Shown: positions 1,135 to 63,793 of the stretch, one piece after another
Position numbering within the stretch: the stretch's first letter is position 1
How the letters are laid out: every line of letters starts with the position of its first letter
Source: a virus
Reading direction: 5' to 3' (one strand)
Length of the DNA: 64,000 nt
IMG/VR virus record: IMGVR_UViG_3300050821_002957
Coordinates: 207,192 to 271,191 of that record
Made by a program: the position numbers and the translations under genes
The notes under the pieces: generated by a model
Seen by the model: the letters and a program-made list of their open reading frames with translations, nothing else
What the model was told of the DNA's origin: nothing
The model's database searches: none

Positions 1135-1171
1135 GCTCTAAGAATAGCAAATTGAAATACCCATGTCAATA

Positions 1172-1215
1172 GATACATCTAAAAATTTTGACATTTTTCT
1201 AAGGTCTGGTAAGCT
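1172..1215 (+). promoter_or_regulatory. sigma70-type promoter: GATACATCT motif, -35 TTGACA (1188-1193), extended -10 TGgTAAGCT
   Basis: read directly; 18-nt leader with GAGGAA SD before ATG 1234. Confidence 0.4.
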
Positions 1216-3042: not shown

Positions 3043-3518
3043 TTACAAATAAAATTTTCCTTGATATGACTCACTGCTTTAGTCAGAGACGTGAATTGTT
3101 TGATGCCATAACGGTTACAGACAATATCGACATTTCCTTTACGCCAGAAGCCAGAAGGACATACTACATGCAGTTTGTCAGTACCAGCATATAGACCAAG
3201 TTCAAGAAGGCTGATCGGACTTTTCGTCGCCGGATCAAAGTACATAATGATTGCATCGGCAGCTTCAAGAGCATCCAATTCCCATTCGACTTGCTGACGA
3301 AATTGCCTACTTGATGCCACGTTCCGCCAATCAGAATTCCATTGTTCACGTCGTGGATTGAGCAAGATCACATCGTACTTTTTAAACATTGACACGACAT
3401 GCTTCTGCCACGGCTTTGCTCTATTCTGTTCGATGGAGCCGCCCAGAAAAATACGAAATCCGTCTGAAGGGTAGCTGTTTGGTGCTTTGAATTCTTGGGC
3501 CACAACTGAAGATAACAC
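3039..3518 (-). CDS. nucleoside 2-deoxyribosyltransferase / DNPH1(Rcl)-like protein
   Basis: IFLGGSIE...LLNPRRE...ADAIIMYFDPATKSPISLLELGLYAG matches CGSIRGG...SLGVGYELG pattern of the NDT/DNPH1 fold. Confidence 0.55.
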   Translation of the reverse strand: MLSSVVAQEFKAPNSYPSDGFRIFLGGSIEQNRAKPWQKHVVSMFKKYDVILLNPRREQWNSDWRNVASSRQFRQQVEWELDALEAADAIIMYFDPATKSPISLLELGLYAGTDKLHVVCPSGFWRKGNVDIVCNRYGIKQFTSLTKAVSHIKENFICK

Positions 3519-3596
3519 GCATGTTGAGACCTGTCAAACTTGGAAATTTGACAACTCTTAAATTCGTGCGATGATGACTCCACAAGGACAGAAACA

Positions 3597-6980: not shown

Positions 6981-8063
6981 TTACTGCGCTGATGCCGTTT
7001 CTTCGGGAGCAGCTACCGAAACCACCTGATGACCATTCATTGCAGCTTCGCCGATAGCCGTCGCAGTGGATGCCAGATCCTTCTTGGATACGGTTTGCTT
7101 GACGGTTGCGCCGATGAAGGGCTTCCATTTGGTTTTGATCACGTCGGCACGCAACGCATCGAATGCGAGTAACATGGCACGACGAATGAAGATCGGACGA
7201 GTTTTGTCACGCTGGCCGGTTGCGAACGTCTCGACCAATTCCGACCGCAGAGCATCAACAGGATTGCCCTTGGGCAGCGAATTCTCCAACGGATTGAAGA
7301 AGGCTTCCATGAACAACATGCCCTTTTCACGGTCGATGTCGAACATCTTCAGGGCGGCGGCGGCGTAAATCGGAATGCGCTTCGTGCCCAGTTCGTCGTT
7401 CACGCTGCCGTGCGAGCGAAACAGAGTTGCGATGGTTTCGTAGACCGAATCGAAATACTCACGCTTGGTCTTGTACTCGTCGTTGATTTCGAGACGAGAC
7501 ATTGCCTTGTTGATGCTGCCCGGTTTGATGTTCTCTGGGAGCATGTAGTATTCGACCATCTCCCACTTGTGAGTGTCCACGTTTGCAAAATGGGCGAGGT
7601 TGGTCTTGGTGCGCTTTGCAACGCCCATGACGAGAAGATTGTCGATCAGAGCTTCGATGTTATCCACATGAATGCCGGTCAGCACTGTGGTTTCATAGCT
7701 CACTTCTGGATTGATCTCTGCTGCTTTCAGCACTGCGTTGCACCGATGTTGCAAATCGATGCCGTCTGCGGTGTCCGTAAACAACAGAGGTTCTCCAGTG
7801 TTGCGAAAATGTCCATTAAGCATCTGCCGTGCCATCGATTCGACCACCGACCAGTTGATCGGGCGATTCGTGACCTTGGGGTCCTTAAGGTTGAACTTCA
7901 GCAAAAATTCGGCAAGCTGCTTGTTTAGGCACACCGTGAACACTTTCACTTTGCTGTCTTTGCTGGATGCTTCGAGCGTCTTATTGAGAAGTGCCAGGGC
8001 TTTGCCTGACCCTTTCAACGTTTGGATCTGTTGATCGTCAATCGTTTGAAGATTGGTAGTCAT
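6981..8063 (-). CDS. ParB/Srx-fold protein with DGQHR-like motif (DGIDLQHR)
   Basis: 360 aa from ATG 8061-8063 (track ORF extends to GTG at 8192); motif ...EPLLFTDTADGIDLQHR resembles DGQHR/DndB-like ParB domain. Confidence 0.4.
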   Translation of the reverse strand: MTTNLQTIDDQQIQTLKGSGKALALLNKTLEASSKDSKVKVFTVCLNKQLAEFLLKFNLKDPKVTNRPINWSVVESMARQMLNGHFRNTGEPLLFTDTADGIDLQHRCNAVLKAAEINPEVSYETTVLTGIHVDNIEALIDNLLVMGVAKRTKTNLAHFANVDTHKWEMVEYYMLPENIKPGSINKAMSRLEINDEYKTKREYFDSVYETIATLFRSHGSVNDELGTKRIPIYAAAALKMFDIDREKGMLFMEAFFNPLENSLPKGNPVDALRSELVETFATGQRDKTRPIFIRRAMLLAFDALRADVIKTKWKPFIGATVKQTVSKKDLASTATAIGEAAMNGHQVVSVAAPEETASAQ

Positions 8064-8713
8064 AGAAGTCTTTCTTAGTTCTGAATTGAAAACGATTGGC
8101 TCAACACGCCGAGAATTTTTGACGTTTGTCCTTTCGTCTGCCTTCTCTTGTAGCAACGTTGATGCCAAACCTGTCTCACACACGAAAACCACGCTTTTTC
8201 AACATACGAAATTCTGTCTTCGCTGTTGTTTCACTTTTTGGATGCAAAATTTTCTGCAAAAGATGCACGAAACTTTGGTTGTGATGAAAAAACTGCAATT
8301 TTTGTATACCACCAGTGACGACATATGGACACTAGGTGACGGCCATTAGACATCATTGGCGCAGGTAACATATGTTAAATGGCGACACATGACCCATAAA
8401 GTAAAAGGGAGCAAAGTCTATGCGACTCGGCTCCCTGGACTACAAGCATTTGCGAACTATTCAATCAAGTATATAATGAGACCAGTGCTATTGCCTGTTG
8501 GTAATCATCCGCACACCCGGCAACTACCAAGTCCCCGTTGAAGTCGATGCGACGGACGTGAACATTTCTAGTTCTTTCGACCCGGCCCCGAAATGGTCAA
8601 CCGTGAGTTTCAGGTCTAGCACTCAACGTTCGCTCGTCACTAATGGCTGAGTACACTATTAATGTACCACCTGGAGTGATCCTTGTCAAACTTGGTACAT
8701 ACATATTTACGAG

Positions 8714-8743
8714 TTGACAAAGTTACATCTAATATGCTAGGCT
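8714..8743 (+). promoter_or_regulatory. promoter -35 TTGACA / 18 nt / extended -10 TGcTAGGCT; ATG 8 nt downstream (near-leaderless)
   Basis: read directly. Confidence 0.4.
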
Positions 8744-9220: not shown

Positions 9221-9225
9221 TTTTT

Positions 9226-9264
9226 GATACATCTATTGACTTCGGTCGGCATTTTTGCTAAGAT
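9226..9264 (+). promoter_or_regulatory. promoter: GATACATCT-A-TTGACT / 17 nt / extended -10 TGcTAAGAT
   Basis: read directly; nearly identical to promoter at 27647. Confidence 0.5.
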
Positions 9265-9272
9265 GGACTCAT

Positions 9273-9917
9273 ATGAAACGTGAGATTGCCTACGAAGGAA
9301 TGAAAACGCCGTGGGGTAAAGCGCAAAGTGCTCAGGAAGTCATCACTGGCATGTACTTCGTCACCACCGCTGGTCATGGCGGCATGAAGCTCAGTATCAA
9401 GTTGAACAAACTGATCCCGGACTACATGCGGAACCAGGGTGGATGGTACGAAGAGGACATCGACTGGTGCATTCCTTACGTAATTCTGGCAACTCACGAT
9501 CTCTTGACCAATCCCAAGTTTGGTGAAGACGTAGACAAGGCTGTTGCCCTACTTCGGAATTGGAAGCCGATGATGTACGAGCGCTTTTTCGATGTCGTCC
9601 TCAAACCCGGCGAGTCCATGAAGAAGGACGAAATGACATGGCAGTCGTACAACGCCGACAAGTTGCAAGTGCTCGCCGCCTGGGGTTCCGGCCAAAATGT
9701 TCGTCTTTCCCCGCCAGCATACGGTGACGGTCCTCTTGTCGAATACGTAGTCAAGCCGGGTTTCGTTCTCGTAGTCGCTGCTGTCGGCGGTCGCACCAAT
9801 CACATCACAGAACACGAAGAGGCATATTATCTTGTGCCCGACGCCGAATATCAGGCTCATGGTCCTCATGGCTTCATCGTCGATCCAACCCATCATCAAA
9901 AGGTGAGTCATGTTTGA
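9273..9917 (+). CDS. hypothetical protein (leaderless ATG 9273 or SD-preceded ATG 9300)
   Basis: ORF to 9917. Confidence 0.5.
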   Translation: MKREIAYEGMKTPWGKAQSAQEVITGMYFVTTAGHGGMKLSIKLNKLIPDYMRNQGGWYEEDIDWCIPYVILATHDLLTNPKFGEDVDKAVALLRNWKPMMYERFFDVVLKPGESMKKDEMTWQSYNADKLQVLAAWGSGQNVRLSPPAYGDGPLVEYVVKPGFVLVVAAVGGRTNHITEHEEAYYLVPDAEYQAHGPHGFIVDPTHHQKVSHV

Positions 9918-14503: not shown

Positions 14504-15016
14504 ATGAACGAACTTACAAAAAAAAGAGAAGAAGGAAAATTATATTCCGGTAAGATTCCGACCGATTACATTCCACTAATTTCGGACGAACGACTACAAG
14601 AACTTGCTCGTATCCGGCCACTCATTGTTCGCAACGGAAAACGGGTCTATGTGACGAATACAAGCCTCGATGACCTTAAAGGAATAGCCTTCACCTGGGC
14701 AGAAGGAAAGTCTGTCGGTAACGTTGCGAAAGACCTCGAATCGTTTCATACCATCATTACCTATCATACCTGGGCCTATTATGGTTTCTTCAAGCCGACA
14801 CAGGCCGAAGTGCTGGCAAAGCTCAATCAAGAATTCACCAACGAGGCTCTTCAAAACGTCGTGGCATACTCGACGCAGGGTCCTGAAACGTCAGACGACT
14901 TGAACAAAAATCCAGACGTGTTGAACGATGGATACCACGAAGCAGTCACGACTCTCTATCGACAAAAATTTCAGCCTTTACAACCGAAATTGATTTGTGC
15001 TAAAATTGACGCATGA
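14504..15016 (+). CDS. hypothetical protein
   Basis: 170-aa ORF. Confidence 0.45.
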   Translation: MNELTKKREEGKLYSGKIPTDYIPLISDERLQELARIRPLIVRNGKRVYVTNTSLDDLKGIAFTWAEGKSVGNVAKDLESFHTIITYHTWAYYGFFKPTQAEVLAKLNQEFTNEALQNVVAYSTQGPETSDDLNKNPDVLNDGYHEAVTTLYRQKFQPLQPKLICAKIDA

Positions 15017-17531: not shown

Positions 17532-18134
17532 TTATGATTCAGGCACAATGTCCACTGGACCGGCAGCAGAAGGAAGGGCGGGAATAGACTCTTTGAAGAG
17601 GATAGGTTGAGCTACTTCGTCATAAGGCATCGAAACGATAGAAGCAGCAAGTCTTTGGACACATTCTTTGAGCATCCTGTTGTGCTGCTCGACCGCTTCA
17701 TCCCATGTCGAACAACGCTCACAAGGTTCATAATCTTCTTCGCCACCAAAAACCATCGTCTCGAAAAGAATAGGCTCGTTGCTGTCGCCGAAGTTGTGAT
17801 CGAGAACCAAGAAAACCGTGCTGACGGTATAGGGACCAACCTTCGTAAAAGCAACCCTGCATTCTTCACGAGACGGCCAGAAGCAATCCAAGTCAAATTC
17901 GACCGGGACACGATTAATAAGCTGGTAGGTTTTCTTCATAAAATGCTGCCTTACCCGTTCGTCTTGTCGTCTCCAGCCTTCTGATTTGTAATAACACGCA
18001 TCTCGATTAAAGTCTGGTCGTTTTTGTGCAGCAACATAATCTTCCCAAGATTCGATATCAACCTCTGTCAGAAGGGAAGGACGAAACCAAAAATCAAAAT
18101 CCTGTGGAAGTACATGATAATACCTGATGATCAC
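17532..18134 (-). CDS. hypothetical protein
   Basis: 200-aa ORF. Confidence 0.45.
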   Translation of the reverse strand: MIIRYYHVLPQDFDFWFRPSLLTEVDIESWEDYVAAQKRPDFNRDACYYKSEGWRRQDERVRQHFMKKTYQLINRVPVEFDLDCFWPSREECRVAFTKVGPYTVSTVFLVLDHNFGDSNEPILFETMVFGGEEDYEPCERCSTWDEAVEQHNRMLKECVQRLAASIVSMPYDEVAQPILFKESIPALPSAAGPVDIVPES

Positions 18135-18502
18135 AACAGCTTCAAGGTTCCTGTGATTTTGTCAACCTCGTCGGCGTAATCCGGCCCAATTGCCAGACAC
18201 GTCTTCGTTGGGACACCACCAAATTCCGTATGGCCTGCGTCTGTGATCACATAGGCCGTCAAATTTGCTGCTCGTGCCTTGGCTTCGATCTCCAGCAATT
18301 GTGCTTCAGAATCGACACGAACACAGATTTTTGTCTGACCCTGAATCATCCATTTCGTCTCAATGGATCGGGGACCAGAATCACCCAAAACACAATCGAT
18401 CAAAAATGCAATCGAAGCGTGTGCTCCCTGTGCGACCATCTTGCCCTTTCGCATGTTCAGGTCGTTCCGCATTACGATTACTTGTTTGATCTCTTTGCTC
18501 AT
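18131..18502 (-). CDS. pth2: peptidyl-tRNA hydrolase, PTH2 family
   Basis: KQVIVMRNDLNMRKGKMVAQGAHAS...W..GQTKI.V...SE..L......A....L.AYVITDAGHTEF...TKTCLAIGP....VDKITGTLKLL colinear with archaeal/eukaryotic PTH2. Confidence 0.8.
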   Translation of the reverse strand: MSKEIKQVIVMRNDLNMRKGKMVAQGAHASIAFLIDCVLGDSGPRSIETKWMIQGQTKICVRVDSEAQLLEIEAKARAANLTAYVITDAGHTEFGGVPTKTCLAIGPDYADEVDKITGTLKLL

Positions 18503-23422: not shown

Positions 23423-23459
23423 AGCATATCACTAGGATTATTCCCTGTCAATAGGTATC
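23423..23459 (-). promoter_or_regulatory. minus-strand promoter GATACCT-A-TTGACA / 17 nt / extended -10 TGaTATGCT
   Basis: RC read directly; second TTGACA copy at 23416-23421. Confidence 0.45.
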
Positions 23460-27158: not shown

Positions 27159-27220
27159 ATCGGGAAGGATACCTTAGTATTTTCTAGGTGTCAAGTTTTT
27201 GCGGCTGGCTCCGAACAAAA

Positions 27221-27455
27221 GGGACCCAATGAAGAAGGCAATGAAGAACTTTCCGATGGTTTTCATATTCTTGGAGTATAGCACTACCGGAGTCCCAAAG
27301 GCAGGGACCCTTTTCAGGATTTCTATAGGGTCAAATTTTTGGTCCGGGAAAATTTTGAGATTTTTGGGGGATGGGACCCTTTTCGGAAATTTTGCTGGGA
27401 CTTTTTTCTGGTACGTCCTCGGAAACGGTAGGGTGGGGTTGTATAACGCCTGCGG
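27221..27455. repeat. GGGACCC iterons (27221, 27304, 27373, degenerate 27448) interleaved with A/T tracts
   Basis: GGGACCCTTTTC exact 12-mer at 27304 and 27373. Confidence 0.45.
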
Positions 27456-27646
27456 ATGGGAACCCTAACCCGGAAAACACTGTGTATTCGACCCCGTACC
27501 CCATGTGTTCTCAAGCACTTGCGTCGATGCGGCTCGGCGAGTCTACATATATTCAGGGTGATGTTCGTCTCTACCCATCCTCATGAGCGTGGCTGCTAAC
27601 ACGACGAGCGACAAGGCCACGCTCTAAAAAATCCTCAAAAATTATT

Positions 27647-27686
27647 GATACATCTGTTGACATTGGATAGATGCATCTGCTAATCT
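27647..27686 (+). promoter_or_regulatory. promoter GATACATCT-G-TTGACA / 18 nt / extended -10 TGcTAATCT with 10-bp palindrome AGATGCATCT (27669-27678) in the spacer
   Basis: read directly. Confidence 0.5.
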
Positions 27687-27690
27687 AGTC

Positions 27691-28189
27691 ATGTAGTCAA
27701 GAGGTTCAAGACAAATAAACGAAAGGCGGCGAGATTGCAAAGCATGAGGAGGACATAGGCGCTCACTTGAGTATGCTGGTTTCAAATGATCGGCAACGAG
27801 AGCGACAAGAGCATTTGATGCAAGCCGTATGATGCTGGTGCGGCCCAAGCTGAAATCTAATCCGTGTTGCTCGGGTCATATGGCGAGACACGTCGGAAAG
27901 AATCCCAGCGTCATACACTCCAGCGACCAATGGTGTATGATTGGTTGATTGACGGATGATCGACGGCGAAGAGCGGACAAGTGCTGAGAGACGCCCTGAA
28001 TCAGTAGCCGTAGATGTCACGAGGATTGCACAGCTTTTCATCCGGCTTGTGCGACTGCGACGAAAGAACGAGAGACGATATGCGCTAACTTGAATAACAT
28101 ACCCTGCTCGGGTTTAAGAGCCTTAAAATTTACTCCTTTCCTGAGGCGCTTTGCAGAGAAACACTGCGGAGCGCCTTATGTGTTTTGGG
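27691..28189 (+). ncRNA. candidate ~490-nt non-coding transcript (promoter to terminator, begins AUG-UAG, no ORF >45 codons)
   Basis: inferred from promoter/terminator; GC-richer than flanks. Confidence 0.3.
28145..28189 (+). terminator. hairpin GGCGCT...AGCGCC followed by TTATGTGTTTT
   Basis: read directly. Confidence 0.4.
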
Positions 28190-28208
28190 CCTGCTATATA
28201 TTTGAAAC

Positions 28209-28433
28209 ATGCTGTACTGCGCCCGGTGTGACAGAAACTTTTTTGACGGCGAGGATATAACAATTCGCTCGGTGGCCGGAACTGAGCAAGCATATCATCA
28301 CGGCTGTCACGTTGACCTCTGCGACGAACTCAGAGAAGTTGCAAAGTCATTCGGCCCGACTTTTGACCAGGACGCCTACGTGCCTGTGATGTTTTTCTCC
28401 CGGACCTTTCGTGATTCGCAAATTGTTCACTAA
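28209..28433 (+). CDS. small Cys/His protein
   Basis: 74-aa ORF C..C....HHGCH..C. Confidence 0.35.
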   Translation: MLYCARCDRNFFDGEDITIRSVAGTEQAYHHGCHVDLCDELREVAKSFGPTFDQDAYVPVMFFSRTFRDSQIVH

Positions 28434-28569
28434 CGAACACACCACTACAGGTTGCGCTTTGTGATATAAAGTTGACAGGTTTCTTGTAAGTTGTTCATAA
28501 ATGCCTCAAAACAGTTGCCATATGATGTGTTATCAGCAATTGGTTAGAAGTTGTGATAAACTGGGTTTC

Positions 28570-29253
28570 ATGAAGAACGCCTATCGAATCGTCGGGACGG
28601 TCGTCTACATCACGGTCGAAACCACCGGCAAGACAAAATTGAAAAAAGAAACGTTGATCGATGTCGCCGACCTGGACATGCTTCTCCATCATCCTGTGAA
28701 AACTTGGTACGCTCATCTTGCAAAAGCTCCAGCCGGAAAATTTTATGTACTCGGCAAAGAATATTCTGCGGAGACACGAAGCTCGACAACACAAATGCTG
28801 CATCGTGTTCTCATGGGCGATCCCCGAAAAAAGTCTGGCAGAGCAATCGAGATTCATCACGTAGACAATGACGGCTTGAACAATCGGCACGAGAATATGG
28901 AGCGCAAATCACATCGGGGAAACATTCGAGCGCATTGGCCAGAAAGAAACTGGGTGCCTTACGATGAGTCGCTTGATCGAATTGTCGTCTTCAAAAAACT
29001 TGTCCAGATCGGCAAAGATATTCAGGCGACATATGAACTGACTCGCCAACAGCTATGGAAGATTCGCACAGGAAAAACATTGGAGTCAGCAGCGGCAAAG
29101 GCTTTTTGGTTCGCTGTGCTCGATGCATATCCTCAGTTGTTTCATAAAGAATGGAGAAGTGCGCCCTGGAAAGTCGGAGCGGCTGCAATCAAACAGTTTT
29201 GTGTTTCAAAAGAAAAAGGTGTGACGGCTGAAAAGTTGTCTGTTTCTTGGTAA
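28570..29253 (+). CDS. HNH homing endonuclease (HNH_3 type), freestanding
   Basis: LHRVLMG...IEIHHVDNDGLNNRHENM; ORF in track begins 28501. Confidence 0.7.
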   Translation: MKNAYRIVGTVVYITVETTGKTKLKKETLIDVADLDMLLHHPVKTWYAHLAKAPAGKFYVLGKEYSAETRSSTTQMLHRVLMGDPRKKSGRAIEIHHVDNDGLNNRHENMERKSHRGNIRAHWPERNWVPYDESLDRIVVFKKLVQIGKDIQATYELTRQQLWKIRTGKTLESAAAKAFWFAVLDAYPQLFHKEWRSAPWKVGAAAIKQFCVSKEKGVTAEKLSVSW

Positions 29254-34168: not shown

Positions 34169-35056
34169 TCAATAGCGGTTATGATGATCGTATCTGTTTC
34201 TGGTGGCTTTTTGATACGCCTTAGCTACATCCGTACTAAATCCATGATCACGAGCAACAATGTGTTGAGAACCGTCTGGATGCTCAAAGACGCCTAAGTT
34301 TTTCTTCTGGTGATAGTCGTTCGGTGAGTGCCCAGTATTGCCGTGATAGTCCTGAAATTTCTGAACAAGTGGATGCTGATTCAGACGATGATGTTCTGCT
34401 TCTTGCTCAGACGTTCCTGAGTAATGTCTACCGTTGTTCTGGTCGTGGTTGTGGACCAAGGTATTGACAAACTGTTTGTGATTGATACCTTTTGGAAACT
34501 CTTTGTTCTTGGTCAGCTTTTGAAACTCTCCAGGCTTGATGTCTCGCACATGGCCGACGTGAGACCATTCATGTTTTTCGTGGTCATGATCAATCAATGG
34601 AGGAAAGATGCCGCTTTCTTTGTTTGAACTGTAATGATTTGATCCTTTCTCCGGTTCGTAGCGAAGAATACGATAGTTTCCGTTCACCCAATGATCGCCA
34701 CCTTCTGCGTGGTTTTGCATGGCACCCAGGCTCATTCCGTCGTGTTCTGAGGCTTTGTGATGCTTGTCGAGTGCGGCTCTGATGGCAACTTTTGTTCCAG
34801 AATGGATGTGTGCATCTTTGCCGTCAAGAACAATGTGATGCGGTGTGTCATGTTTCAAATAGGCTCTGGACGAACCTTTGGGCATGTTACCTTCGATGCC
34901 AGTCTTCTGTCCGCTGTTGGTCAATTGTTTGATCTTTTTTGCGAGCAGGCTTTGCTTTGGCGCATACGAATTTGAAGACGTAACAATCGACCGGAGTTCA
35001 GGATGAAGCTCTTCGACGATTACATTGTGGATGAAGTCTTTAAAATTGACCAGCAT
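34169..35056 (-). CDS. histidine-rich protein with CTS-like N-terminus (MLVNFKDFIHNVIVEE); candidate packaged internal protein
   Basis: 295 aa, about 14% His; CTAAATAC box 5 nt upstream of ATG. Confidence 0.5.
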   Translation of the reverse strand: MLVNFKDFIHNVIVEELHPELRSIVTSSNSYAPKQSLLAKKIKQLTNSGQKTGIEGNMPKGSSRAYLKHDTPHHIVLDGKDAHIHSGTKVAIRAALDKHHKASEHDGMSLGAMQNHAEGGDHWVNGNYRILRYEPEKGSNHYSSNKESGIFPPLIDHDHEKHEWSHVGHVRDIKPGEFQKLTKNKEFPKGINHKQFVNTLVHNHDQNNGRHYSGTSEQEAEHHRLNQHPLVQKFQDYHGNTGHSPNDYHQKKNLGVFEHPDGSQHIVARDHGFSTDVAKAYQKATRNRYDHHNRY

Positions 35057-35065
35057 GTCCAGTAT

Positions 35066-35320
35066 TTAGTCGAACAAACTGGCCTGATGAATCTTGGACA
35101 AATGCTTTTCTAAATTGGTGGGAGTCTTGCCGCCTTTCTTCTTCGCTGAGTGTGTCCATCCTGCGTCAGAGACGGTCGCTGTGTGGTCGAGACGAGGATG
35201 GGTATACTTGGTGACCCCGGACTCATTCGACGCCTTCTGATAGCCGTAATTGCGGAGCACAGCCTGGACTTTCTTGCTCGATTTGGACTCGGCGATCAGA
35301 AATTCGCTGAAGGATTGCAT
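35066..35320 (-). CDS. small basic protein with T4-IP-like N-terminus MQSFSEFLIAE
   Basis: 84 aa; compare T4 internal-protein CTS MKTYQEFIAE; CTAAATAC box 4 nt upstream. Confidence 0.5.
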   Translation of the reverse strand: MQSFSEFLIAESKSSKKVQAVLRNYGYQKASNESGVTKYTHPRLDHTATVSDAGWTHSAKKKGGKTPTNLEKHLSKIHQASLFD

Positions 35321-35348
35321 GACTGTATTTAGCTGTATAGATATCCAT

Positions 35349-38120: not shown

Positions 38121-38128
38121 GCCAGTAT

Positions 38129-38427
38129 TTAGCTGGCTTTGACTCCTACTTCCTTCAACTTACGAGGACGGCCTGCTTTGCGTCCCTTTACACGGTCGTA
38201 CACACTGCGCTTGTGACTGTATCTGCGGCTACGAAAGATTTTATAGGCACGCTGAGTCAAAGTTTCGTCTTCTTTCATTTTAACACTCTCGATTGGAGTA
38301 GCGAAAATATTGACCGGGCCGCAGCCTGTAAATTCGTATCCACAGTGTTCGCAGCCGAGACACGGTTCATTCACACAAACACCCGGCGAAAGTTTCTTTG
38401 GTTTATCGTTTGAAAGTTGAAATGCCA
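38129..38427 (-). CDS. Zn-finger protein with C-terminal AT-hook (GRKAGRPRK)
   Basis: 99 aa from ATG 38425-38427. Confidence 0.4.
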
Positions 38428-41334: not shown

Positions 41335-42126
41335 CTAAACAGGCTCGACCGGATAATTCGGCAGACCGAGACCGGCGATATGCTTGCATGAGCCATGAAC
41401 ACGATGGGCCATGCAAGAACACTGCCAGCGATGATTGGTCTTGTGCTGACCGATGGTGTACTCGCTCGTGCTGTCCGTGAATGATTTGACCGTGAAGCGA
41501 TTGGTGTAGAAGGCAGTGTCCTCCAAGCGAGTCGAGGTACGGGGTATCAGTACCTTCGGCAACACAGCGGGAAGCGGTTGGCGCTTCGGAGCACCAGGAA
41601 TATGAACTTCCTCGCACGAGATGTCATTGCCGTCATCGTCGATGCTGACCTTGAAGCAAAAGACCATCGGCAGACCATTGACCATTTTGCCGGTGTCCAC
41701 GACGTAGCGATACTCGATGTCGCAGGGATCTTTCATCATGATGCCACATGAAATGAAATCGAGGCGTTCCTTTTTCGGAACAGAAGTGAACTCACGCTTT
41801 TCGTTCGGGTCCTTTGGATTGTGCGAATGCTCGTGCAGCTTGCCTGCGGCATCTTTGAATTTGTAATCGACGGCGAACATCTCACCGAGGAACACGACGT
41901 ATCGGGCAGCGAGAAAAGCATCGTCATCCAGACGATTGTCCTTGAGCTTCTTGCAACGGCGAAGGAACTTGTACAGATCGACGCCAGCGCCCTTGGGATA
42001 GCCGTCGCTGTGACGATAAACGATGGCGCTAAGATAGGGCTTGTTCGTTACTGGATCGATGTATGTGCTGTCGATGAAGTGTGTCGTTGACCGTGTGCTC
42101 ATGTATCTAAGATAGCAAAGATACAT
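41335..42126 (-). CDS. hypothetical protein with C-terminal SWIM-type Zn finger
   Basis: CSCMAHRVHGSCKH. Confidence 0.45.
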   Translation of the reverse strand: MYLCYLRYMSTRSTTHFIDSTYIDPVTNKPYLSAIVYRHSDGYPKGAGVDLYKFLRRCKKLKDNRLDDDAFLAARYVVFLGEMFAVDYKFKDAAGKLHEHSHNPKDPNEKREFTSVPKKERLDFISCGIMMKDPCDIEYRYVVDTGKMVNGLPMVFCFKVSIDDDGNDISCEEVHIPGAPKRQPLPAVLPKVLIPRTSTRLEDTAFYTNRFTVKSFTDSTSEYTIGQHKTNHRWQCSCMAHRVHGSCKHIAGLGLPNYPVEPV

Positions 42127-42133
42127 CTAAAAG

Positions 42134-42472
42134 TCAACCACAGAGAGGAACTTTATTCTCTTCCTTTTCAACAACTTGAATCCACTTTCTCAGGTAGTAA
42201 CGAGCGTCGTATTTTGTGCTCGTTTCTGCTTGAACAAATGGCGTTGGTTTGCTTTCAAGAATGAGTGGCATCGGCGTGGCTTTCAACATTGCGAGTTTGA
42301 AACGAACGTCGGGCCGTCTATCGAATCGCACGATCATTTCAGGAGCGTATTGAATCGCTGTACCGCCCGGTGTGGATCGTTGTTTAAGAATTTCGATTTT
42401 GAGCGAGTCGTTCATTCTGCTCCAGCATGTACATTTCAAAATACACTGACGACGTGACATCGTTCTCCGCAC
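42134..42472 (-). CDS. hypothetical protein
   Basis: 112-aa ORF. Confidence 0.35.
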   Translation of the reverse strand: MRRTMSRRQCILKCTCWSRMNDSLKIEILKQRSTPGGTAIQYAPEMIVRFDRRPDVRFKLAMLKATPMPLILESKPTPFVQAETSTKYDARYYLRKWIQVVEKEENKVPLCG

Positions 42473-43172: not shown

Positions 43173-43404
43173 GATAAGAAATTTCACTGGAGGCGGCGTA
43201 AGTTTTTGTTTCGATGTGAATCATTTGCCGCAGATTATCGAATTCTAACTTAATGAATTCTCGCTGACATTCCAACGAATCCAGGCATAGCTGTTGCGGG
43301 GTGTTAGTGTCCACGGCGATCTCCATTAAAGAAAGTTCTCTTGGATATATATAGCGTCCCGCATAACTGTCTTAATAACTGGTTTGTCTATGGTAAGATG
43401 GAGC

Positions 43405-44313: not shown

Positions 44314-44389
44314 TGGTAGACCCGGTAGGATTCGCACCTACGACCTCATCGATGTCAACGATGCGCTCTAACTACTGAGCTACGGGTCT
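44314..44389 (-). tRNA. tRNA-Val (anticodon GAC), CCA encoded
   Basis: manual cloverleaf: acceptor AGACCCG/CGGGTCT, D stem GCTC/GAGC, anticodon stem CATCG/CGATG loop TTGACAT, T stem GTAGG/CCTAC; D-loop lacks GG, T-loop TGCGAAT. Confidence 0.8.
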
Positions 44390-45103: not shown

Positions 45104-45689
45104 TGTTTCCTGCTATGTACTGAATACCGTAATTCTGTCCTCGCTTTCCGAAGATCCAACGACCGGCGACCACACCCTTATAGATGTTCGCATTCATTAT
45201 CATGTTGGTCATGTCTGTCATCATCATAACAGATTTCATACCTGTGGTCATCGACTCCAATTCCAAATAGGCAGCGGAACGACCTCGACCATATCCAAGA
45301 ATCTTCATGGTATCATCAAACTCTGCTGGGACACGCCACTGATAGTCGTAATGTCTGATCTGCCAACCAATCCAATTGAGCCAATCCGCTTCGTCTTTCC
45401 ACGTTGGTTTCCCGTCGTAACGCATCGGATTCTGAAAGCCTGCATCACGAACCGCTTTCCATTCTGCCAGTTTGGTGATACAAACTGATTGCCTATCTGC
45501 CCAATGAGGAACATCGCCCGTCTGATTGTGAAACGGAATTTGTATGGTGCTCTTCCTCTTTTTTGTCGGCATAGAACTTTCTCCAAGAATACCACAAAAA
45601 TTTTGGTTGTCAAAAGAATCGGATGTGGTAGGATACGTAAAGAGGCTTCCCTTACAATATGAATTTGAGTTATGAAAATTTGATGGCAA
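45081..45689 (-). CDS. hypothetical protein
   Basis: 202-aa ORF. Confidence 0.45.
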   Translation of the reverse strand: MPSNFHNSNSYCKGSLFTYPTTSDSFDNQNFCGILGESSMPTKKRKSTIQIPFHNQTGDVPHWADRQSVCITKLAEWKAVRDAGFQNPMRYDGKPTWKDEADWLNWIGWQIRHYDYQWRVPAEFDDTMKILGYGRGRSAAYLELESMTTGMKSVMMMTDMTNMIMNANIYKGVVAGRWIFGKRGQNYGIQYIAGNNEESGNN

Positions 45690-47262: not shown

Positions 47263-47352
47263 ATGCCTATTTAGACGGATCTTCCAAGTAAATATTTGAG
47301 TGGTGCTATTGAAGCAAGTGGTTGTTTTGAATCACTTTTCATTTACCATGAT

Positions 47353-48261: not shown

Positions 48262-48852
48262 CTAGTTGTTTTTGTAGCTGCGATTGAAGACGCTTACAAT
48301 TTCTTCGGTGAATGAAAGCCTGAACGACGGCGGCTGGACGGCTGTATAATCCCATCCCATAGCAACGGCATAACTCAGTGAGATGTGCGGAACGAACCTA
48401 TGATACACCATGTCTACACCGTGCTCAACTGCAAAATTCCATTGCCGGTCCAGTTCGTTGCATTCAAAAAATAGAGCGAAGGCAGGTCCAATGGTTCCAA
48501 GAATGTAAGTTTCTGGGGCGATGTGAATTTGGCGACGGTCTGGAATGTATTCAGGAGGGAGTTGATTGCAGGCACAGACAACACTACAGTGGAGCTTTTC
48601 TTTTGCAAGAGGACTCGGAATGTGTTGATCCGAAAGCCATTCGTACAAAAGGTTGCGTGATTGAGTTTCTAGCGCCCGAAGTGAATAAACAGCCTCTTCG
48701 TGGTTTGCCTTTCGGTCTGATGCAACTTGGACCAGCACTTGATTATTTAGCTTTCTGTGAAGAGAGTTGCAGGCGGTGGAATGAACTGGAAATGTGGGCC
48801 TTTGTAATGAAAGCCGTGGACGTAACTCATGGTTTGGCAGGAATTGTACCAT
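48262..48852 (-). CDS. 2H phosphoesterase superfamily protein (LigT / Acb1-like fold)
   Basis: two H-x-S-x motifs (HCSV, HISL) about 75 aa apart. Confidence 0.45.
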   Translation of the reverse strand: MVQFLPNHELRPRLSLQRPTFPVHSTACNSLHRKLNNQVLVQVASDRKANHEEAVYSLRALETQSRNLLYEWLSDQHIPSPLAKEKLHCSVVCACNQLPPEYIPDRRQIHIAPETYILGTIGPAFALFFECNELDRQWNFAVEHGVDMVYHRFVPHISLSYAVAMGWDYTAVQPPSFRLSFTEEIVSVFNRSYKNN

Positions 48853-49205
48853 TCGACAATTTGCCTTGCATCGTCGCCTTCTGCAATGTCTTGAGAGCCA
48901 TCGTCATAACGGATGTTGATGTAAATTGCTTTATTCTGTTCGGGCACATTTTGAGTATAGCACCGTCGCCACAGGCGTCAAATTTTCTTCTTTGCCCATC
49001 CTTCTGGTGACGTTATTTCGGTGCCGAGAAAATACATGGGATCGAAGTCCAGATCACCGATACCTCGTTTCAACACCTTTTCGGGACTGACAATTTTTGA
49101 AGCCTGGACACCCTCTACAAAGCCGGGTTCCCGTTCGGCCTTATAGTCAAGGAATTCCAATGTGTGCGCCAGGGCTATGATCTCTTTGCTCTTGTCCATT
49201 GTGTG

Positions 49206-50841: not shown

Positions 50842-50881
50842 ATCCTAACAGGTTCGAGGGCGAATGTCAATAGACGTATCT
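50842..50881 (-). promoter_or_regulatory. promoter AGATACGTCT-A-TTGACA / 17 nt / extended -10 TGtTAGGAT, leaderless (ATG 6 nt after -10)
   Basis: RC read directly. Confidence 0.45.
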
Positions 50882-51162: not shown

Positions 51163-51203
51163 ATCCTATCAGGTTCAAGGGTTAAAAGTCAACTAGATGT
51201 ATC
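51163..51203 (-). promoter_or_regulatory. paralogous promoter GATACATCT-AG-TTGACT / 18 nt / TGaTAGGAT, leaderless
   Basis: shares GAACCTGWTAGGATT with promoter at 50842. Confidence 0.45.
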
Positions 51204-51788
51204 AGTTTTTTCGTACCAATTTGGCGGCATCGGGGTCCAGCTTTTCGTGTCCCGAATGTCGCAAGGCACGTCGGCGTCTTGTGGCCGTAGATGCTTGTGG
51301 TATGCGTGTAGGCGACGTTGAAATTTGGAAGTGCTCAGATAGTCCCCAAGCGTCATCGGTGCGTCTACGTGCGCCGGATTGAGTTCACCGCAGGTTGTAC
51401 AACGACGCAGCAGAAAATCGTGATCGCATTCGGTAGTGGCAGACGATGCATTCACAGTAGTGATGTCGTACCGTGTGAATGTTTCATTCGAGTCCCAACA
51501 AAGCGTGAGCGGTTCGATTTCCCTTATTGTTGCGGTGACAAAACGTGTTCCCTTCTCCTTGGACTCGACAAAAATTTTGAAGGATTCTTGCGTCATTAAC
51601 AGACGTTCAATCACATCACGATAGGTCAAATCTTCATCATCTAAAATACGAATTTTCCACTCACCTTCGCCCGGAAGTTCCCATGCGCCAGCAAGACATT
51701 CTTTCAATCCAGGATGAAGCAGTCGTACCCGAAGATTTGGTCGTTCGATTGGATTGAATTTACCGAAGTTAACGATGCTGAATGCCAT
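51189..51788 (-). CDS. hypothetical protein
   Basis: 199-aa ORF. Confidence 0.45.
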   Translation of the reverse strand: MAFSIVNFGKFNPIERPNLRVRLLHPGLKECLAGAWELPGEGEWKIRILDDEDLTYRDVIERLLMTQESFKIFVESKEKGTRFVTATIREIEPLTLCWDSNETFTRYDITTVNASSATTECDHDFLLRRCTTCGELNPAHVDAPMTLGDYLSTSKFQRRLHAYHKHLRPQDADVPCDIRDTKSWTPMPPNWYEKTDTSS

Positions 51789-51794
51789 GACGCT

Positions 51795-52358
51795 TTATTT
51801 AGTGGCCTCTTCCAAATTTAAATGGGCCTTCACTTCGTACTTGTCGTAAAAATATGGAGTGTGGTAGATCGGTTTTCGTTCGTTGAATGCGGCTAGAATT
51901 TTTTTGCGTTCGATCTTGAAGATAGCATCTGGAACGAACGCATATTCTTTGCGAATCAGTTCGGTGTTCGCAGCAAAATGATCGACGGCCAGTGAAGTGA
52001 GATCAATGTCGCAAATCAATTTTTCGTCGTTGGTTTCTGGTTTGAATCTATCAATATGCTTGGTCACCAGGATATAACGTTTGACACGTTGTGCGAATGC
52101 TTCGTCGTATCCTTCTCGCAAGGCAGCTTCATAAGCAGAATCCGCCGACCGTTCTTCGTTATCAGTGAATTCGCCTTCGTAGATGTAGTCATGAAACCAC
52201 CATGCAAATCGAAATGCTTCTTCGTCGTCAACATGCACCCCGGCCTGAAGTGCCTCACGGAGTTCTTTGAAACCGTCAGCAATGTGATCTAGATTGTGAA
52301 AAAAGCGATTCGGACGCCTGTATCCGTAATACAGTTGAACAAGGGTTTGTTGATTCAT
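51795..52358 (-). CDS. HD-domain metal-dependent phosphohydrolase (COG4339-like)
   Basis: FHNLDH ... WWFHDYIY. Confidence 0.45.
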   Translation of the reverse strand: MNQQTLVQLYYGYRRPNRFFHNLDHIADGFKELREALQAGVHVDDEEAFRFAWWFHDYIYEGEFTDNEERSADSAYEAALREGYDEAFAQRVKRYILVTKHIDRFKPETNDEKLICDIDLTSLAVDHFAANTELIRKEYAFVPDAIFKIERKKILAAFNERKPIYHTPYFYDKYEVKAHLNLEEATK

Positions 52359-52581: not shown

Positions 52582-54135
52582 CTACTTCAGAACGTGGAAA
52601 GGATTGTGGTGTGGTTGTTCGCCGCCCGGTTTCGGATGATTAATGCGAATGATACCGTCAGGATCTACCTTGTTTGCGAATTTACCAGCAGCATCGTTGG
52701 TTACGCCTTTGAGACGAAGACCCGAAACGACTCCGCTGTGTTCATCATGGCCGTGACCGTTGGTGTGCTTGATGCCCAATTGTTGATGACGGTCGAATGT
52801 ATTATCGTCTTCGTCACCGTTTGCAATTGGATAACGATGGCCGCTCGATACATCTTCTACGTGTGTCGGATGAGGAGTATCCTTACCACGGTGGTGAACC
52901 ATTGCGACGACGTGACCATTCTTCAATGCATGAACAACGTCTTTATCGTTGCTTTCGGAGTGGCCTGTACCAGTATGAGACAAACTCAAATGGTAATTTT
53001 CTGGTTTGTTCGGATTGTGAAGACGGCCCGGAATTTTGGTATAATCATAAAATTGCGAACCATGATGACGCTCGAAAAATTTCTTCGGCATCAAGTGTTC
53101 GTAAGGGATGTCAGACGTAACATTTAGACGCACACCGGATTGGTGAGGATTTGGCGTAACTTTGTCGATCTTTCCGCCATGCTCTTTAATGTGGGCTTGT
53201 GCTTCTTGTTTGGTGTTAAACTGGTGTTCGCCAACATGATGAGTCTTTACGTTCGCAGCTTCTTTTTCGTTGCGTGAAATTTCGTGGGACAACAAACGTG
53301 CGGCATGTTCAGGATGCTCATGGACGTAATGTGTACGCAGAACCTTTGCTCGTAATGCTGCTTCAGGATATTGACGATTTCCACCAGCAGTCAGGCCGAG
53401 ACAATTCTTGCGGCATTCACCAGACGCCTTCGGGCATAGATCGTGCTTGTATCCAGAGTGTGTGCTTGGAGCCATTGCGAGACCAACTGTCTTTACGCCA
53501 GCACCGCTGCTCTTACGAGTCTTGCCATTTTCACCCATCAAATTTGCTTGACCGTTCTTTGCGTGACCACCACGTTCGTGCATGAATTGACGGAAATGCT
53601 TTTGTGCTTCTTTGGCCTTTTGTTCGGTGACCTTTGGGTGTTCGCCTTCTGGAAATGCAGCATGGAAGCCTGCCTTCATATGCTGGAATGGATTGCCGCC
53701 TTGCTTGTCCAGCGCTTCACGACCCTTTGCCTGAATGTCTTTGACCGGAAATGCATCTTCCGTCATAGAACTTTTCTGCGATTTTCCTGGTTTGCCGGAA
53801 CGAGTCATGTTCATCCAGGGCGAAGACAGGTGATGCAAGAAGTTATGAACGATAGGATAGTCGAGGAGAGTCTTCTTGGTGCCTTTCTTTTCGATGAGTA
53901 TTTGCGGCTGTTCGTACAGAAATTCGATCTCTGCTTTGTCAAGTTCAAGAGTTTCATCAAGCAGGAGGGCAGCTTGGGTATCGAAAGATTCTACAACTTC
54001 TTTGGTTTCGATCTTTGCTTTGTACTCTTCTGCAAGCTCTTTGTCCATTTTGATGATGTCGGTCAAAAGGTTCTTACCAAAGAACTTGGCGTAATTTTTT
54101 TCGGTTAGGTCGGCCATTATTATCCCTCGACCCAT
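52582..54135 (-). CDS. large histidine-rich protein (alternative ATG 54117 with GAGGG SD)
   Basis: 517 aa; His-rich C-terminal half; GCTAAATAT box overlaps first ATG. Confidence 0.5.
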   Translation of the reverse strand: MGRGIIMADLTEKNYAKFFGKNLLTDIIKMDKELAEEYKAKIETKEVVESFDTQAALLLDETLELDKAEIEFLYEQPQILIEKKGTKKTLLDYPIVHNFLHHLSSPWMNMTRSGKPGKSQKSSMTEDAFPVKDIQAKGREALDKQGGNPFQHMKAGFHAAFPEGEHPKVTEQKAKEAQKHFRQFMHERGGHAKNGQANLMGENGKTRKSSGAGVKTVGLAMAPSTHSGYKHDLCPKASGECRKNCLGLTAGGNRQYPEAALRAKVLRTHYVHEHPEHAARLLSHEISRNEKEAANVKTHHVGEHQFNTKQEAQAHIKEHGGKIDKVTPNPHQSGVRLNVTSDIPYEHLMPKKFFERHHGSQFYDYTKIPGRLHNPNKPENYHLSLSHTGTGHSESNDKDVVHALKNGHVVAMVHHRGKDTPHPTHVEDVSSGHRYPIANGDEDDNTFDRHQQLGIKHTNGHGHDEHSGVVSGLRLKGVTNDAAGKFANKVDPDGIIRINHPKPGGEQPHHNPFHVLK

Positions 54136-54157
54136 ATTTAGCGTTATAGATACCCTT

Positions 54158-57645: not shown

Positions 57646-57719
57646 GCTTTATCAAGGTATCATGGATCGCCAATCTGTCAAATTTGGGATTGTCAATAGC
57701 CTGTGTTGTATATAAACTC

Positions 57720-58115
57720 ATGAAACAACGAGGCGTCATCAAGCCGATCATGCAGTCGAAGAAAGAAGAAGTTACAGAGTCGAAGACCACGAGCCTGCCA
57801 CAACCACCTTATGCCATTTCGACCATGACCCGGCATTTTTTAGAGAACGAACTTGCATCGAACAAGATCGTCGAAGATGACCTAAACTTCATTTATGATC
57901 TGGGAAGAAGAGTGGCAGGATTTTTGAATCACGAACGACCATTGTTTTACGATCTGGCGGCTGCGGTACAGATGAAATCAGTCGAAGAGGTACGAGATGT
58001 TGCAGAAGGTAGGAAGGAGATTCTGATTGTGCTTCCAGAATTCGGGACTCGCAAGATGCAGACACACGAATTCCGAGTGGCTTTGTGGAAACGAATTGCT
58101 GAGGCTATGTTATAG
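57720..58115 (+). CDS. hypothetical protein, leaderless from TTGTCA/TATAAA promoter
   Basis: start MKQRGVIKP. Confidence 0.4.
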   Translation: MKQRGVIKPIMQSKKEEVTESKTTSLPQPPYAISTMTRHFLENELASNKIVEDDLNFIYDLGRRVAGFLNHERPLFYDLAAAVQMKSVEEVRDVAEGRKEILIVLPEFGTRKMQTHEFRVALWKRIAEAML

Positions 58116-59913: not shown

Positions 59914-59925
59914 CTAAATACCGAC

Positions 59926-61723: not shown

Positions 61724-61954
61724 CCGGATGGCCGATATGATAGAACGAACACCAAGGGCAATGGTACGGTTCTAATGTCTCTCCCGGCGACTTTACTTCC
61801 AAATTGTACGCCGCTTTCGTTGCCTTTAAAGGCGTGTCGTATTTGATCTTCTGGCCACAAGAACGTTCTTCACCAGATGCCAAAGCAACAGCGTGGTCTT
61901 GCTCAAATTTTTCGACGATTTCCTTAGGCCACATTTCAACTAAATATTTCCACT

Positions 61955-63553: not shown

Positions 63554-63793
63554 CTACATCTTTTTTCTTCGGGCCTTTTTTGCGGCTCTTTTGTCGGCTC
63601 GGATCTTCTCAACTTCAGCCATTACAGCACGTTCGTAGGCGGCGGCGATGTCAAGCTGAAAGACCTTGCGACGGCCCTTGAGACGAAGCGCCAGCCATGT
63701 AGGATGGATCGTGACGGCAATTTGACGAGACTTGCTACCTTCTCGAAAAGTGCTGTACGTCAATCGAGTTGTAGGCTTGTTGGCCTTGGTCAT
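63554..63793 (-). CDS. small basic protein, possible ribbon-helix-helix DNA binder
   Basis: 79 aa, Lys/Arg-rich C-terminus. Confidence 0.3.
   Translation of the reverse strand: MTKANKPTTRLTYSTFREGSKSRQIAVTIHPTWLALRLKGRRKVFQLDIAAAYERAVMAEVEKIRADKRAAKKARRKKM

Follow-up and report, generated by a model that had tools for sequence, protein, structure and literature searches.

Introduction

The early promoters of phage T4 have been described as 'uber' promoters that combine UP, -35, TGn and -10 elements (PMC2988021), and T4-like phages place early promoters in front of novel small open reading frames (ORFs; PMC1524935). A TANNNT motif some 12 nucleotides (nt) 5' of the start codon is taken to mark leaderless genes; it is found frequently in Deinococcus-Thermus, Aquificae, Actinobacteria, Deltaproteobacteria and Acidobacteria (PMC3160421). 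In the Thermus phages YS40 and Lalka27a most transcripts start at the initiator codon, 6 nt after TANNNT (bioRxiv 10.64898/2026.04.20.719267). The model jumbo phages phiKZ and AR9, which are not T4-like, have no leaderless transcripts in their experimental transcript maps (PMC8244752; PMC5312081), and in AR9 the 5' untranslated regions (UTRs) measure 26-491 nt (PMC5312081). Repression from a palindrome directly 5' of the -35 element is known for KorB of RK2, which represses 4- to 5-fold from such a site (OB oligo, TTTAGCGGCTAAA; PMC11790492). Here we analyse a 64,000-nt stretch of viral DNA (IMG/VR record IMGVR_UViG_3300050821_002957, positions 207,192 to 271,191), called the window below, which judged by its sequence is from a large uncultivated T4-like phage. 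It contains a family of strong extended -10 promoters, of which the promoter at 9236-9264 (P9236) is an example. Many of these promoters are predicted to give leaderless mRNAs, and about half of the family carries one palindromic element.

A family of extended -10 promoters

The pattern TTGAC-N13-16-TGnTAnnnT occurs 16 times in the window, against 0.51 expected and a maximum of 3 in 100 shuffles, an enrichment of at least 30-fold. When one mismatch in the -35 is permitted, the window has 20 sites against 2.7 expected. Every pattern-defined site has a spacer of 16, 17 or 18 bp followed by TGnTAnnnT, and the -35 hexamers of the 16 sites are at or near consensus (TTGACA or TTGACT). As a cross-check, matrices for the -35 and the -10 were built solely from promoters of related contigs. 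Run over the window, they returned 17 sites of at least 14 bits where 1 was expected and 13 sites of at least 16 bits where 0 were expected. The sites are almost certainly a real family of sigma-70-type extended -10 promoters, with about 20 members in the window (Table 1). The site at 34464-34491(+) lies antisense within a gene and is probably a chance match.

The promoters precede small non-structural genes and have the same orientation as those genes. Several form divergent pairs, four of them back to back (1141-1215, 3509-3575, 8661-8743 and 45586-45634). The aligned sites have a canonical -35, and a MotA box is seen in none of them, which sets them apart from the MotA-dependent middle promoters of T4, where the box (a/t)(a/t)(a/t)TGCTTtA, centred at -30, replaces the -35 (PMC2988021). 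We infer that they belong to the early class from the type of promoter, the gene content behind them and the existence of a separate late-type motif.

An earlier, sequence-only reading of the window had listed eight of these promoters. All eight promoters are present where it placed them, each with TGn, and the distances it gave from the -10 to the ATG are right (8 nt for 9273, 5 nt for 43405, 6 nt for 50835 and 7 nt for 51155). Its -10 consensus, TGnTA(A/G)G(A/C)T, was too narrow and fits only the subset that it listed. The consensus of the family is TGnTAnnnT, in relatives TGCTATTCT, and further members have TATTCT, TATCTT, TACCTT, TATACT, TATTAT or TAAAAT as -10 hexamer. The promoter before ATG 57720, which it had also named, is not a clear member, as it has no TGn and its -10 is ambiguous (TATATA). 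The family is larger than first listed: ten members have been added.

Start codons at the predicted transcription start

At 9 of the 16 pattern-defined sites in the window, an ATG that opens an ORF of at least 40 codons lies 5-8 nt past the -10, against a background of 2.8% (binomial p ~1e-10). At another two sites the codon in this place is a GTG, 3503 at offset 5 and 48947 at offset 6. Among 43 sites in relatives, 24 have their ATG at an offset of exactly 6, where the background is 0.7% (p ~1e-40). At this offset the A of the ATG is the seventh base past the -10, which is the canonical start, and leaderless transcripts are therefore predicted. P9236 illustrates the arrangement: the plus strand at 9226-9275 reads GATACATCT-A-TTGACT-N17-TGCTAAGAT-ggactcat-ATG, and the mRNA of the 9273 ORF is predicted to be leaderless or to have a leader of at most 2 nt. 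For most of the family, the mRNA probably starts at or within 2 nt of the AUG.

The stored gene calls are the annotation of the 178.9-kb source assembly contig (run SRR7093796, on which a literature search gave no match) and are independent of the present analysis. They use the same ATGs at 1134, 8752, 9273, 15013, 50835, 51155 and 57645, and also the one at 57720. Two calls differ. The start at 42126, called instead of 42102, appears wrong, and the start at 3389, called instead of 3503, cuts into the Pfam domain of the nucleoside 2-deoxyribosyltransferase-like product. Because this domain begins at residue 16 of the GTG-started protein, the start of the 3503 ORF must lie close to the promoter. 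Two orthologue pairs of about 60% amino acid (aa) identity, 50835 with its counterpart in L129 and 42102 with that in L138 (viral contigs are given by L numbers), align from residue 1, and the DNA of their discriminators and spacers has diverged. Read directly from the sequence, ATG 50835 has an in-frame stop two codons upstream. The leaderless starts proposed in the sequence-only reading are thus backed by the ATG spacing statistics, the independent gene calls and the N-termini of orthologues.

A Shine-Dalgarno core (GGAG, GAGG or AGGA at -18 to -5) precedes 28% of the ATG-start genes in the whole window, against 6.4% of random positions. With such low use the host evidently tolerates initiation without a Shine-Dalgarno sequence and, judging from this frequency, most internal genes of the window must also be translated without a classical one.

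CTAAATA is a second motif, of which the window has 12 copies where 3.0 would be expected. Nine of these stand in front of the ATG of ORFs of 84-517 codons, at a distance of -1 to 8 nt (mostly 5), and no -35 lies upstream of them (Table 1). They precede, among others, gp53-like and GP88-like structural genes, and the motif is conserved in relatives, where it sometimes stands before a GTG. CTAAATA matches the late-promoter consensus of the T4-like phage Aeh1, in which it begins at -12 (PMC1524935). From this start and the N5-ATG arrangement found here, the late mRNAs would also begin at the A of the ATG.

A palindromic element at two promoter positions

The element GATACATCT upstream of the -35 is part of a 10-bp palindrome, AGATRYATCT, or 12 bp with its flanks (TAGATRYATCTA), which was derived by aligning 59 promoters from the window and its relatives. 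The 9-mer GATACRTCT occurs 7 times in the window against 0.72 expected, and 0 of 100 shuffles reach 7. Both orientations are found: GATACATCT at 9226, 27647, 50872 and 51195, and AGATGTATCT or AGATGTAGCT at 1169 and 63549. A perfect palindrome, AGATGCATCT, is present at 27669 and at L130:1237. By hand count, 9 of the roughly 15 window copies with a purine-pyrimidine centre are at promoters; these account for about 2% of the sequence. In relatives the palindrome lies at dozens of promoter positions, again in both orientations.

The copies fall into two classes. Upstream copies abut the -35, with a gap of 1-2 nt; for 21 of 26 of them, the 10-mer starts 11 nt ahead of that hexamer's first T. Assuming a 17-bp spacer and a start 7 nt past the -10, these copies span -46 to -37 and are centred at -41.5. 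Spacer copies sit between the -35 and TGn, beginning 7-10 nt past the first T of the -35, with the centre at about -21. Window examples are the one-mismatch copy of promoter 8714, the copy of promoter 42109 and the second copy of promoter 27657; outside the window there are copies at L001:1107, L130:1237, L138:2277, L142:1060 and L073:1007. The window and the first relatives have at least 8 spacer copies, against about 0.1 by chance (hand estimate), and a dedicated scan of further clade contigs gave many more, for example at three promoters that lie side by side in L267. Over the 10 nt 5' of the upstream copies the A+T content is 76% (82% in the window), compared with 56-61% at promoters without an upstream copy.

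We conclude that the palindrome is probably the operator of a DNA-binding protein. The sequence-only reading had placed GATAC(A/G)TCT 1-2 nt from the -35 in most of its sites and had seen a repressor operator at 27647. The former applies to four of its eight sites (9226, 27647, 50872 and 51195) and not to the other four. The operator idea is strengthened by the palindromic form, the two orientations and the copies within spacers; repression is one of two candidate actions, beside activation.

Conservation in related phages was followed with a long pattern, as a scan of viral contigs with a 14-base motif gave mostly chance matches. The pattern GATACATCTNTTGAC-N13-16-TGNTA yielded 26 viral-contig loci, of which about 16, in contigs of 41-52% G+C, have the full architecture. 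Several of these contigs, namely L119, L129, L138 (one sample) and L206, have 3-8 proteins in common with the window, at 35-75% identity. The 50842 promoter shares with its orthologue in L129 the A-tract and operator as well as the -35, -10 and ATG; the two differ in spacer and discriminator. The 42109 promoter (W42137) has its operator in the spacer and none upstream; its orthologue, L138:6218, has the operator upstream and none in the spacer. This swap suggests that both positions do one job. When 185,579 bacterial and archaeal genomes were scanned for the composite motif, 38 single matches turned up, scattered over unrelated taxa and none with the full architecture, which is consistent with chance.

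Boxes of NtcA, FNR, CRP, MetJ, NarL and LexA were compared with the element and rejected as its identity for mismatches in half-site sequence or spacing. Contigs L196, L205, L231, L235, L242, L248 and L266, of 35-38% G+C, contain a promoter of the form TTGACAA(A/G)(T/A)(C/A)AGATGTATCTGTGATATACT with the same palindrome in its spacer, and the operator type may, on this sequence pattern, extend beyond the studied clade. At L073:1007(-) and L230:1906(-), a promoter with a spacer operator and a GTG 7 nt past the -10 precedes the gene of a small protein that by eye appears to resemble YidD, a membrane-protein insertion efficiency factor.

A candidate regulator beyond the window

At 1.0-1.9 kb past the right end of the window, L001:1733-2638 encodes a 301-aa ParB/KorB-like helix-turn-helix (HTH) protein. 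It scores 26.6 bits for HTH_ParB (Pfam cutoff 22.6), has a weak match to the KorB domain, below the cutoff, and matches the Noc and Spo0J structures at 3e-6. It has also retained an ENxxR(K)xL-type motif, together with a GxxR box that is degenerate. The region upstream of the gene reads TTGACA-AAG-TAGATGCACCTA-N-TAGAGT, with the operator in the spacer, and the operon just 5' of the gene (L001:1107) has a spacer operator too.

Homologues in relatives are 51-75% identical and have operators nearby. In L278, a 370-kb relative whose protein is 73% identical, two tandem operators abut a TTGTCA before the gene. In L280, where the protein is 51% identical, all five promoters carry TAGAC(G/A)(T/C)(A/G)TCTA and have the ATG at offset 6-8; the half-site there is AGAC, as against AGAT in the window. 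A peptide-pattern search of IMG/VR for the ParB-like protein gave no match, and the homologues came from a protein database search. One homologue, 41% identical, is labelled as a KorB-domain protein of a Bryobacteraceae (Acidobacteriota) bin, encoded on a different phage-like contig without these operators; as a pointer to the host, this label is at most a faint hint. The genes behind spacer-type operators encode no DNA-binding domain detectable with Pfam. We consider it possible, though doubtful, that the ParB-like protein is the regulator that binds the operators.

Weighing the explanations

The account that we favour, and consider moderately probable as a whole, joins host-type early promoters, leaderless mRNAs and one palindrome-binding regulator. 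The holoenzyme with the housekeeping sigma factor of the host would recognise the promoters, and the mRNAs would begin with AUG and be translated without a leader or Shine-Dalgarno sequence. The genes driven in this way would be early genes, among them the Acb1 homologue, the nucleoside 2-deoxyribosyltransferase-like gene, the AAA ATPase and many small ORFs. A dimeric phage-encoded protein would bind the palindrome, making the promoter set one regulon; if it is the candidate ParB-like protein, this would dock on TAGATGCATCTA. The likeliest action would be repression, for example in early-gene shut-off. Repression is favoured because a site between the -35 and the -10 can only hinder the polymerase, because the swapped operators of the orthologous pair point to one job for both positions, and because the core promoters are already near consensus; we rate it as a serious possibility that falls just short of being probable. 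It is unlikely that the picture extends further, to one ParB/KorB-family regulator over the whole early programme of dozens of leaderless units, a KorB-style regulon in a lytic phage whose late CTAAATA transcripts are leaderless too. If it did, the phage would depend on, or manipulate, leaderless initiation by host 70S ribosomes.

Several observations weigh against the favoured account. Promoters 1188, 23423, 45586 and 45607 have leaders of 13-24 nt, and P27657 drives no ORF. In L119, a syntenic relative, the AAA ATPase gene has not kept this promoter. No gene of the window has a DNA-binding domain according to Pfam and the stored annotation. As about half of the promoters of this kind bear an operator in any case, finding operators before the ParB-like gene counts for little. 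Relatives were gathered by means of the forward upstream motif, so that this class is over-counted among them; the ATG offset and the spacer copies were outside that search. Finally, the geometry is also that of class II activation: the upstream copies are centred at -41.5, they are strictly spaced, and they alone have the A/T tract.

This geometry is the basis of the most direct challenge to repression, in which a co-injected or early-made regulator bound at -41.5 would recruit the polymerase and the spacer copies would repress. On this view, promoters whose copy lies upstream would form a class of delayed-early or middle promoters. Such dual action is known from lambda CI, which activates from -42 (class II, at PRM) and represses elsewhere. 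The upstream copies keep a fixed distance from the -35, at the same base in 21 of 26 cases (centre -41.5 or -42.5), and only they are accompanied by the UP-like A/T tract, as if the C-terminal domain of the polymerase alpha subunit (alpha-CTD) docked 5' of a bound activator. However, a class II activator site near -41.5 goes with a poor -35, and here the hexamers are near consensus and TGn is present in all, so that an activator seems unnecessary; W42137 and its orthologue L138:6218 would moreover be regulated oppositely. We regard activation as improbable. A reading that needs no regulator takes GATACATCT as an intrinsic contact of the polymerase, a host-specific proximal UP subsite or extended -35 touched by alpha-CTD or sigma region 4. 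The element indeed occupies the proximal UP subsite (-46 to -37) with the A/T tract at the distal one, and early promoters of T4 also show conserved positions in addition to the canonical elements (PMC2988021). Against this, the element is not A/T-rich, half of the family is without it, and the palindrome is found in both orientations and also within spacers, where contacts with alpha-CTD or sigma region 4 are not expected. Nor did the composite turn up as a recurring architecture in any of the 185,579 genomes. We rate an intrinsic contact as very unlikely.

The nearness of the ATG could also have a cause other than leaderless initiation. Translation might proceed, independently of Shine-Dalgarno sequences, from longer upstream transcripts, with TGnTAnnnT secondary or silent. 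Shine-Dalgarno use of only 28% across the window would suit this, as would the location of several promoters (for example 50842 and 51163) just 3' of same-strand genes, where read-through is probable. Read-through leaves the sharp peak at 6 nt in relatives unexplained, however. CTAAATA is placed equally precisely, N5 before the ATG, and starts at -12 in Aeh1 (PMC1524935), and in Thermus phages the same design is experimentally confirmed (bioRxiv 10.64898/2026.04.20.719267). We hold this explanation to be highly improbable. The promoters might, lastly, resemble each other through recent duplication of promoter cassettes within the genome, without common regulation. Promoters 50842 and 51163, which the sequence-only reading had called duplicated promoter-gene cassettes, do have GAACCTGWTAGGATT in common and are alike, with 15 shared nt beyond the consensus elements, and in many copies the A/T tract, palindrome and -35 travel together. 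The proteins downstream of the two promoters, in contrast, have no detectable similarity, so that paralogy of the 50835 and 51155 products is rejected and only the promoter part of that claim stands. Spacers and discriminators vary between copies and only the functional blocks are conserved, these blocks are kept at orthologous positions where the proteins are only about 60% identical, and the palindrome alone appears in a second position, the spacer. Duplication as the sole cause is scarcely credible, and the host-type early promoters with a shared operator remain the account that we prefer.

Features of the window

The positions of the promoters, operators and other elements are collected in Table 1.

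Table 1. Promoters, operator copies, late-type motifs and other features (window positions unless an L number is given; scores are from the matrix scan)
Position	Strand	Feature	Remarks
1141-1169	-	TTGACA-17-TGCTATTCT	25.3 bits; ATG 1134 at 6 nt; 139-aa ORF 715-1134; newly added
1171-1180		Operator AGATACATCT, arms perfect	Common to two divergent promoters; distance to the -35 is 1 nt for 1141-1169(-) and 7 nt for 1188-1215(+)
1188-1215	+	TTGACA-16-TGGTAAGCT	22.5 bits; 18-nt leader, GAGG Shine-Dalgarno, ATG 1234
3509-3537	-	TTGACA-17-TGTTATCTT	GTG 3503 5 nt past -10; nucleoside 2-deoxyribosyltransferase-like ORF; newly added
8661-8689	-	TTGACA-17-TGGTACATT	Divergent from the 8714 promoter (P8714); newly added
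8714-8743	+	TTGACA-18-TGCTAGGCT	22.1 bits; ATG 8752 at 8 nt; 92-aa ORF; no upstream operator; operator-like AGTTACATCT (8721-8730, one mismatch) within spacer
9225-9234		Operator copy TGATACATCT (one mismatch to AGATRYATCT); an A/T-rich tract adjoins it on the 5' side	1 nt 5' of the P9236 -35
9236-9264	+	P9236: -35 TTGACT (9236-9241), 17-bp spacer, TGC-TAAGAT (9256-9264)	22.0 bits
9273-9917	+	ORF, 214 aa, DUF7007	ATG 8 nt past -10; independent gene call agrees
14977-15006	+	TTTACA-18-TGCTAAAAT	18.7 bits; ATG 15013 at 6 nt; 52 aa, DUF2934; newly added
23423-23459	-	TTGACA-17-TGATATGCT	17.9 bits; leadered; degenerate upstream GATACCT (23453-23459), one base shorter
27646-27686	+	TTGACA-18-TGCTAATCT (P27657)	26.5 bits, the highest in the window; no ORF behind; two operators, TGATACATCT upstream (27646-27655) and perfect palindrome AGATGCATCT in spacer (27669-27678)
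42109-42137	-	TTGACT-17-TGCTATCTT	Operator AGATGTATCT in spacer (42119-42128); ATG 42102 6 nt past -10; 255-aa ORF 41335-42102; newly added
43391-43399	+	Extended -10 TGGTAAGAT without good -35, weak member	ATG 43405 at 5 nt; 107-aa ORF; no upstream operator copy; first listed as 43368-43399
44314-44389	-	tRNA-Val (anticodon GAC)	Sole tRNA gene of the window
45586-45613	-	TTGACA-16-TGGTATTCT	24.0 bits; leadered; back-to-back with 45607(+), -35 regions overlapping; newly added
45607-45634	+	TTGTCA-16-TGGTAGGAT	15.6 bits; leadered; newly added
48954-48981	-	TTGACG-16-TGCTATACT	5' of Acb1 homologue 48262-48852; GTG (48947) 6 nt past -10; 66-codon ORF, uncertain; newly added
50842-50881	-	Operator AGATACGTCT (50872-50881) and TTGACA-17-TGTTAGGAT	22.9 bits; ATG 50835 6 nt past -10; 112 aa, DUF2958
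51163-51204	-	Operator TGATACATCT (51195-51204) and TTGACT-18-TGATAGGAT	20.0 bits; ATG 51155 7 nt past -10; 91-aa ORF unrelated to 50835 product
57654-57681	-	TTGACA-16-TGATACCTT	ATG 57645 at 8 nt; 347-aa AAA ATPase; no operator; newly added
63521-63561	-	Inverted operator AGATGTAGCT (63552-63561) and TTGACT-17-TGCTATTAT (63521-63549)	19.8 bits; ATG 63514 6 nt past -10; 41-codon ORF; newly added
2537-2543, 35063-35069, 35326-35332, 38126-38132, 47268-47274, 51796-51802, 54135-54141	-	CTAAATA copies before ORFs	
59914-59920, 61940-61946	+	CTAAATA copies before ORFs	
L001:1656-2638 (window-equivalent 65008-65990)	-	ParB-like gene and operator promoter	Beyond window end

The window has about 46% G+C and consists mostly of small ORFs without known function. 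A near-identity DNA search of deposited phages found no close relative of it, and its proteins have only distant matches among phage proteins, to jumbo or large phages. The gp53 baseplate-wedge homologue matched 2,348 T4-like phage records, with best matches in Methylophilales, Ochrobactrum, Pelagibacter and cyanobacterial myoviruses. Matches of the AAA ATPase are in metagenomic phage records of 462-595 kb, and a protein database search showed that a 405,631-bp contig also carries one protein whose gene lies just beyond the window. The only match in an Rfam scan of the window was its one tRNA.

The stored annotation contains a PTH2 domain (PF01981, archaeal/eukaryotic-type peptidyl-tRNA hydrolase) in a 123-aa product at 18131-18502(-), which may bear on takeover of translation. 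The gene at 48262-48852(-), for a homologue (Pfam 1.6e-13) of Acb1, a protein that counters the cyclic-oligonucleotide-based anti-phage signalling system (CBASS), lies 3' of the promoter at 48954-48981(-), and this place fits an early anti-defence role of genes under the promoter family.

Two promoters point into stretches without called genes. The 8661-8689(-) promoter is followed by about 360 nt (8300-8660) without a called gene and then by a 403-aa gene at 6981-8192; the intervening stretch may be transcribed as a long 5' UTR or as non-coding RNA. P27657 lies in 1.3 kb without a called gene (27159-28500), which also contains GGGACCCTTTTC-like repeats at 27304, 27373 and 27397. It points into about 490 nt without an ORF, ended by a long hairpin and T-run at about 28143-28190, and an HNH-endonuclease-like gene (28501-29253) directly follows the gene-free stretch. 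RNA folding of 27691-28190 gave no overall structure signal (z = -1.3), and the same segment has no Rfam match and no homologue in the fetched relative loci.

Comparison with known systems

Strong early phage promoters are already a known kind. New here, as far as can be predicted from the DNA, is their combination with a systematic leaderless design and a shared operator in an uncultivated clade. For this group of large uncultivated phages the promoter model is a ready annotation aid that fixes true start codons, and the promoter classes separate early from late genes without culture. The presence of one palindrome at about half of the early promoters leads us to expect a simple master switch of the early genes, and the ParB/KorB family of the candidate is better known from plasmids than from phages.

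The closest likeness is to the early promoters of T4. In both phages many dispersed strong sigma-70-type promoters with -35, TGn and -10, here with an A/T tract where the palindrome lies upstream, stand before small early ORFs, in a T4-like genome (here with a gp53 homologue) and distinct from a TATAAATA-like late motif. They differ in the -35, which is TTGACA here and GTTTAC in T4, in the palindrome, not A/T-rich, that replaces the proximal UP region in about half of the promoters here, and in the predicted leaderless transcripts. To our knowledge, leaderless transcripts have not been reported for T4, nor have T4-like phages been described as using leaderless expression systematically.

The predicted start-site design is that of the Thermus phages phiYS40 and Lalka27a, in which a TAnnnT -10 that is often TG-extended lies 6 nt before an AUG or GUG initiator, with which most of the mRNAs begin, and leaderless genes belong to more than one temporal class (bioRxiv 10.64898/2026.04.20.719267). 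These phages are of another lineage and their starts were established from mapped 5' ends, whereas those of the window are sequence predictions; the section on Lalka27a describes no shared palindromic operator.

The operator has its parallels elsewhere. In lambda OR/PRM a dimeric repressor has an operator near -42 of a promoter with a leaderless cI mRNA, and it represses from operators that overlap other promoters. In lambda this is a single locus, where the operators are 17 bp long and the core promoter of PRM is weak; the present phages have dozens of promoters, sites of 10-12 bp and consensus core elements. As in RK2 with KorB, a short palindrome recurs at many promoters of one mobile genome, at some of them directly 5' of the -35, and where the promoter of the RK2 regulator itself has an operator, here a ParB/KorB-like gene lies beside operator-bearing promoters. 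The operators differ in sequence, OB being TTTAGCSGCTAAA and the present element TAGATRYATCTA. No KorA-like partner or distal operators were identified here, and the phage protein is a putative binder of a palindrome that, like OB, recurs throughout one genome.

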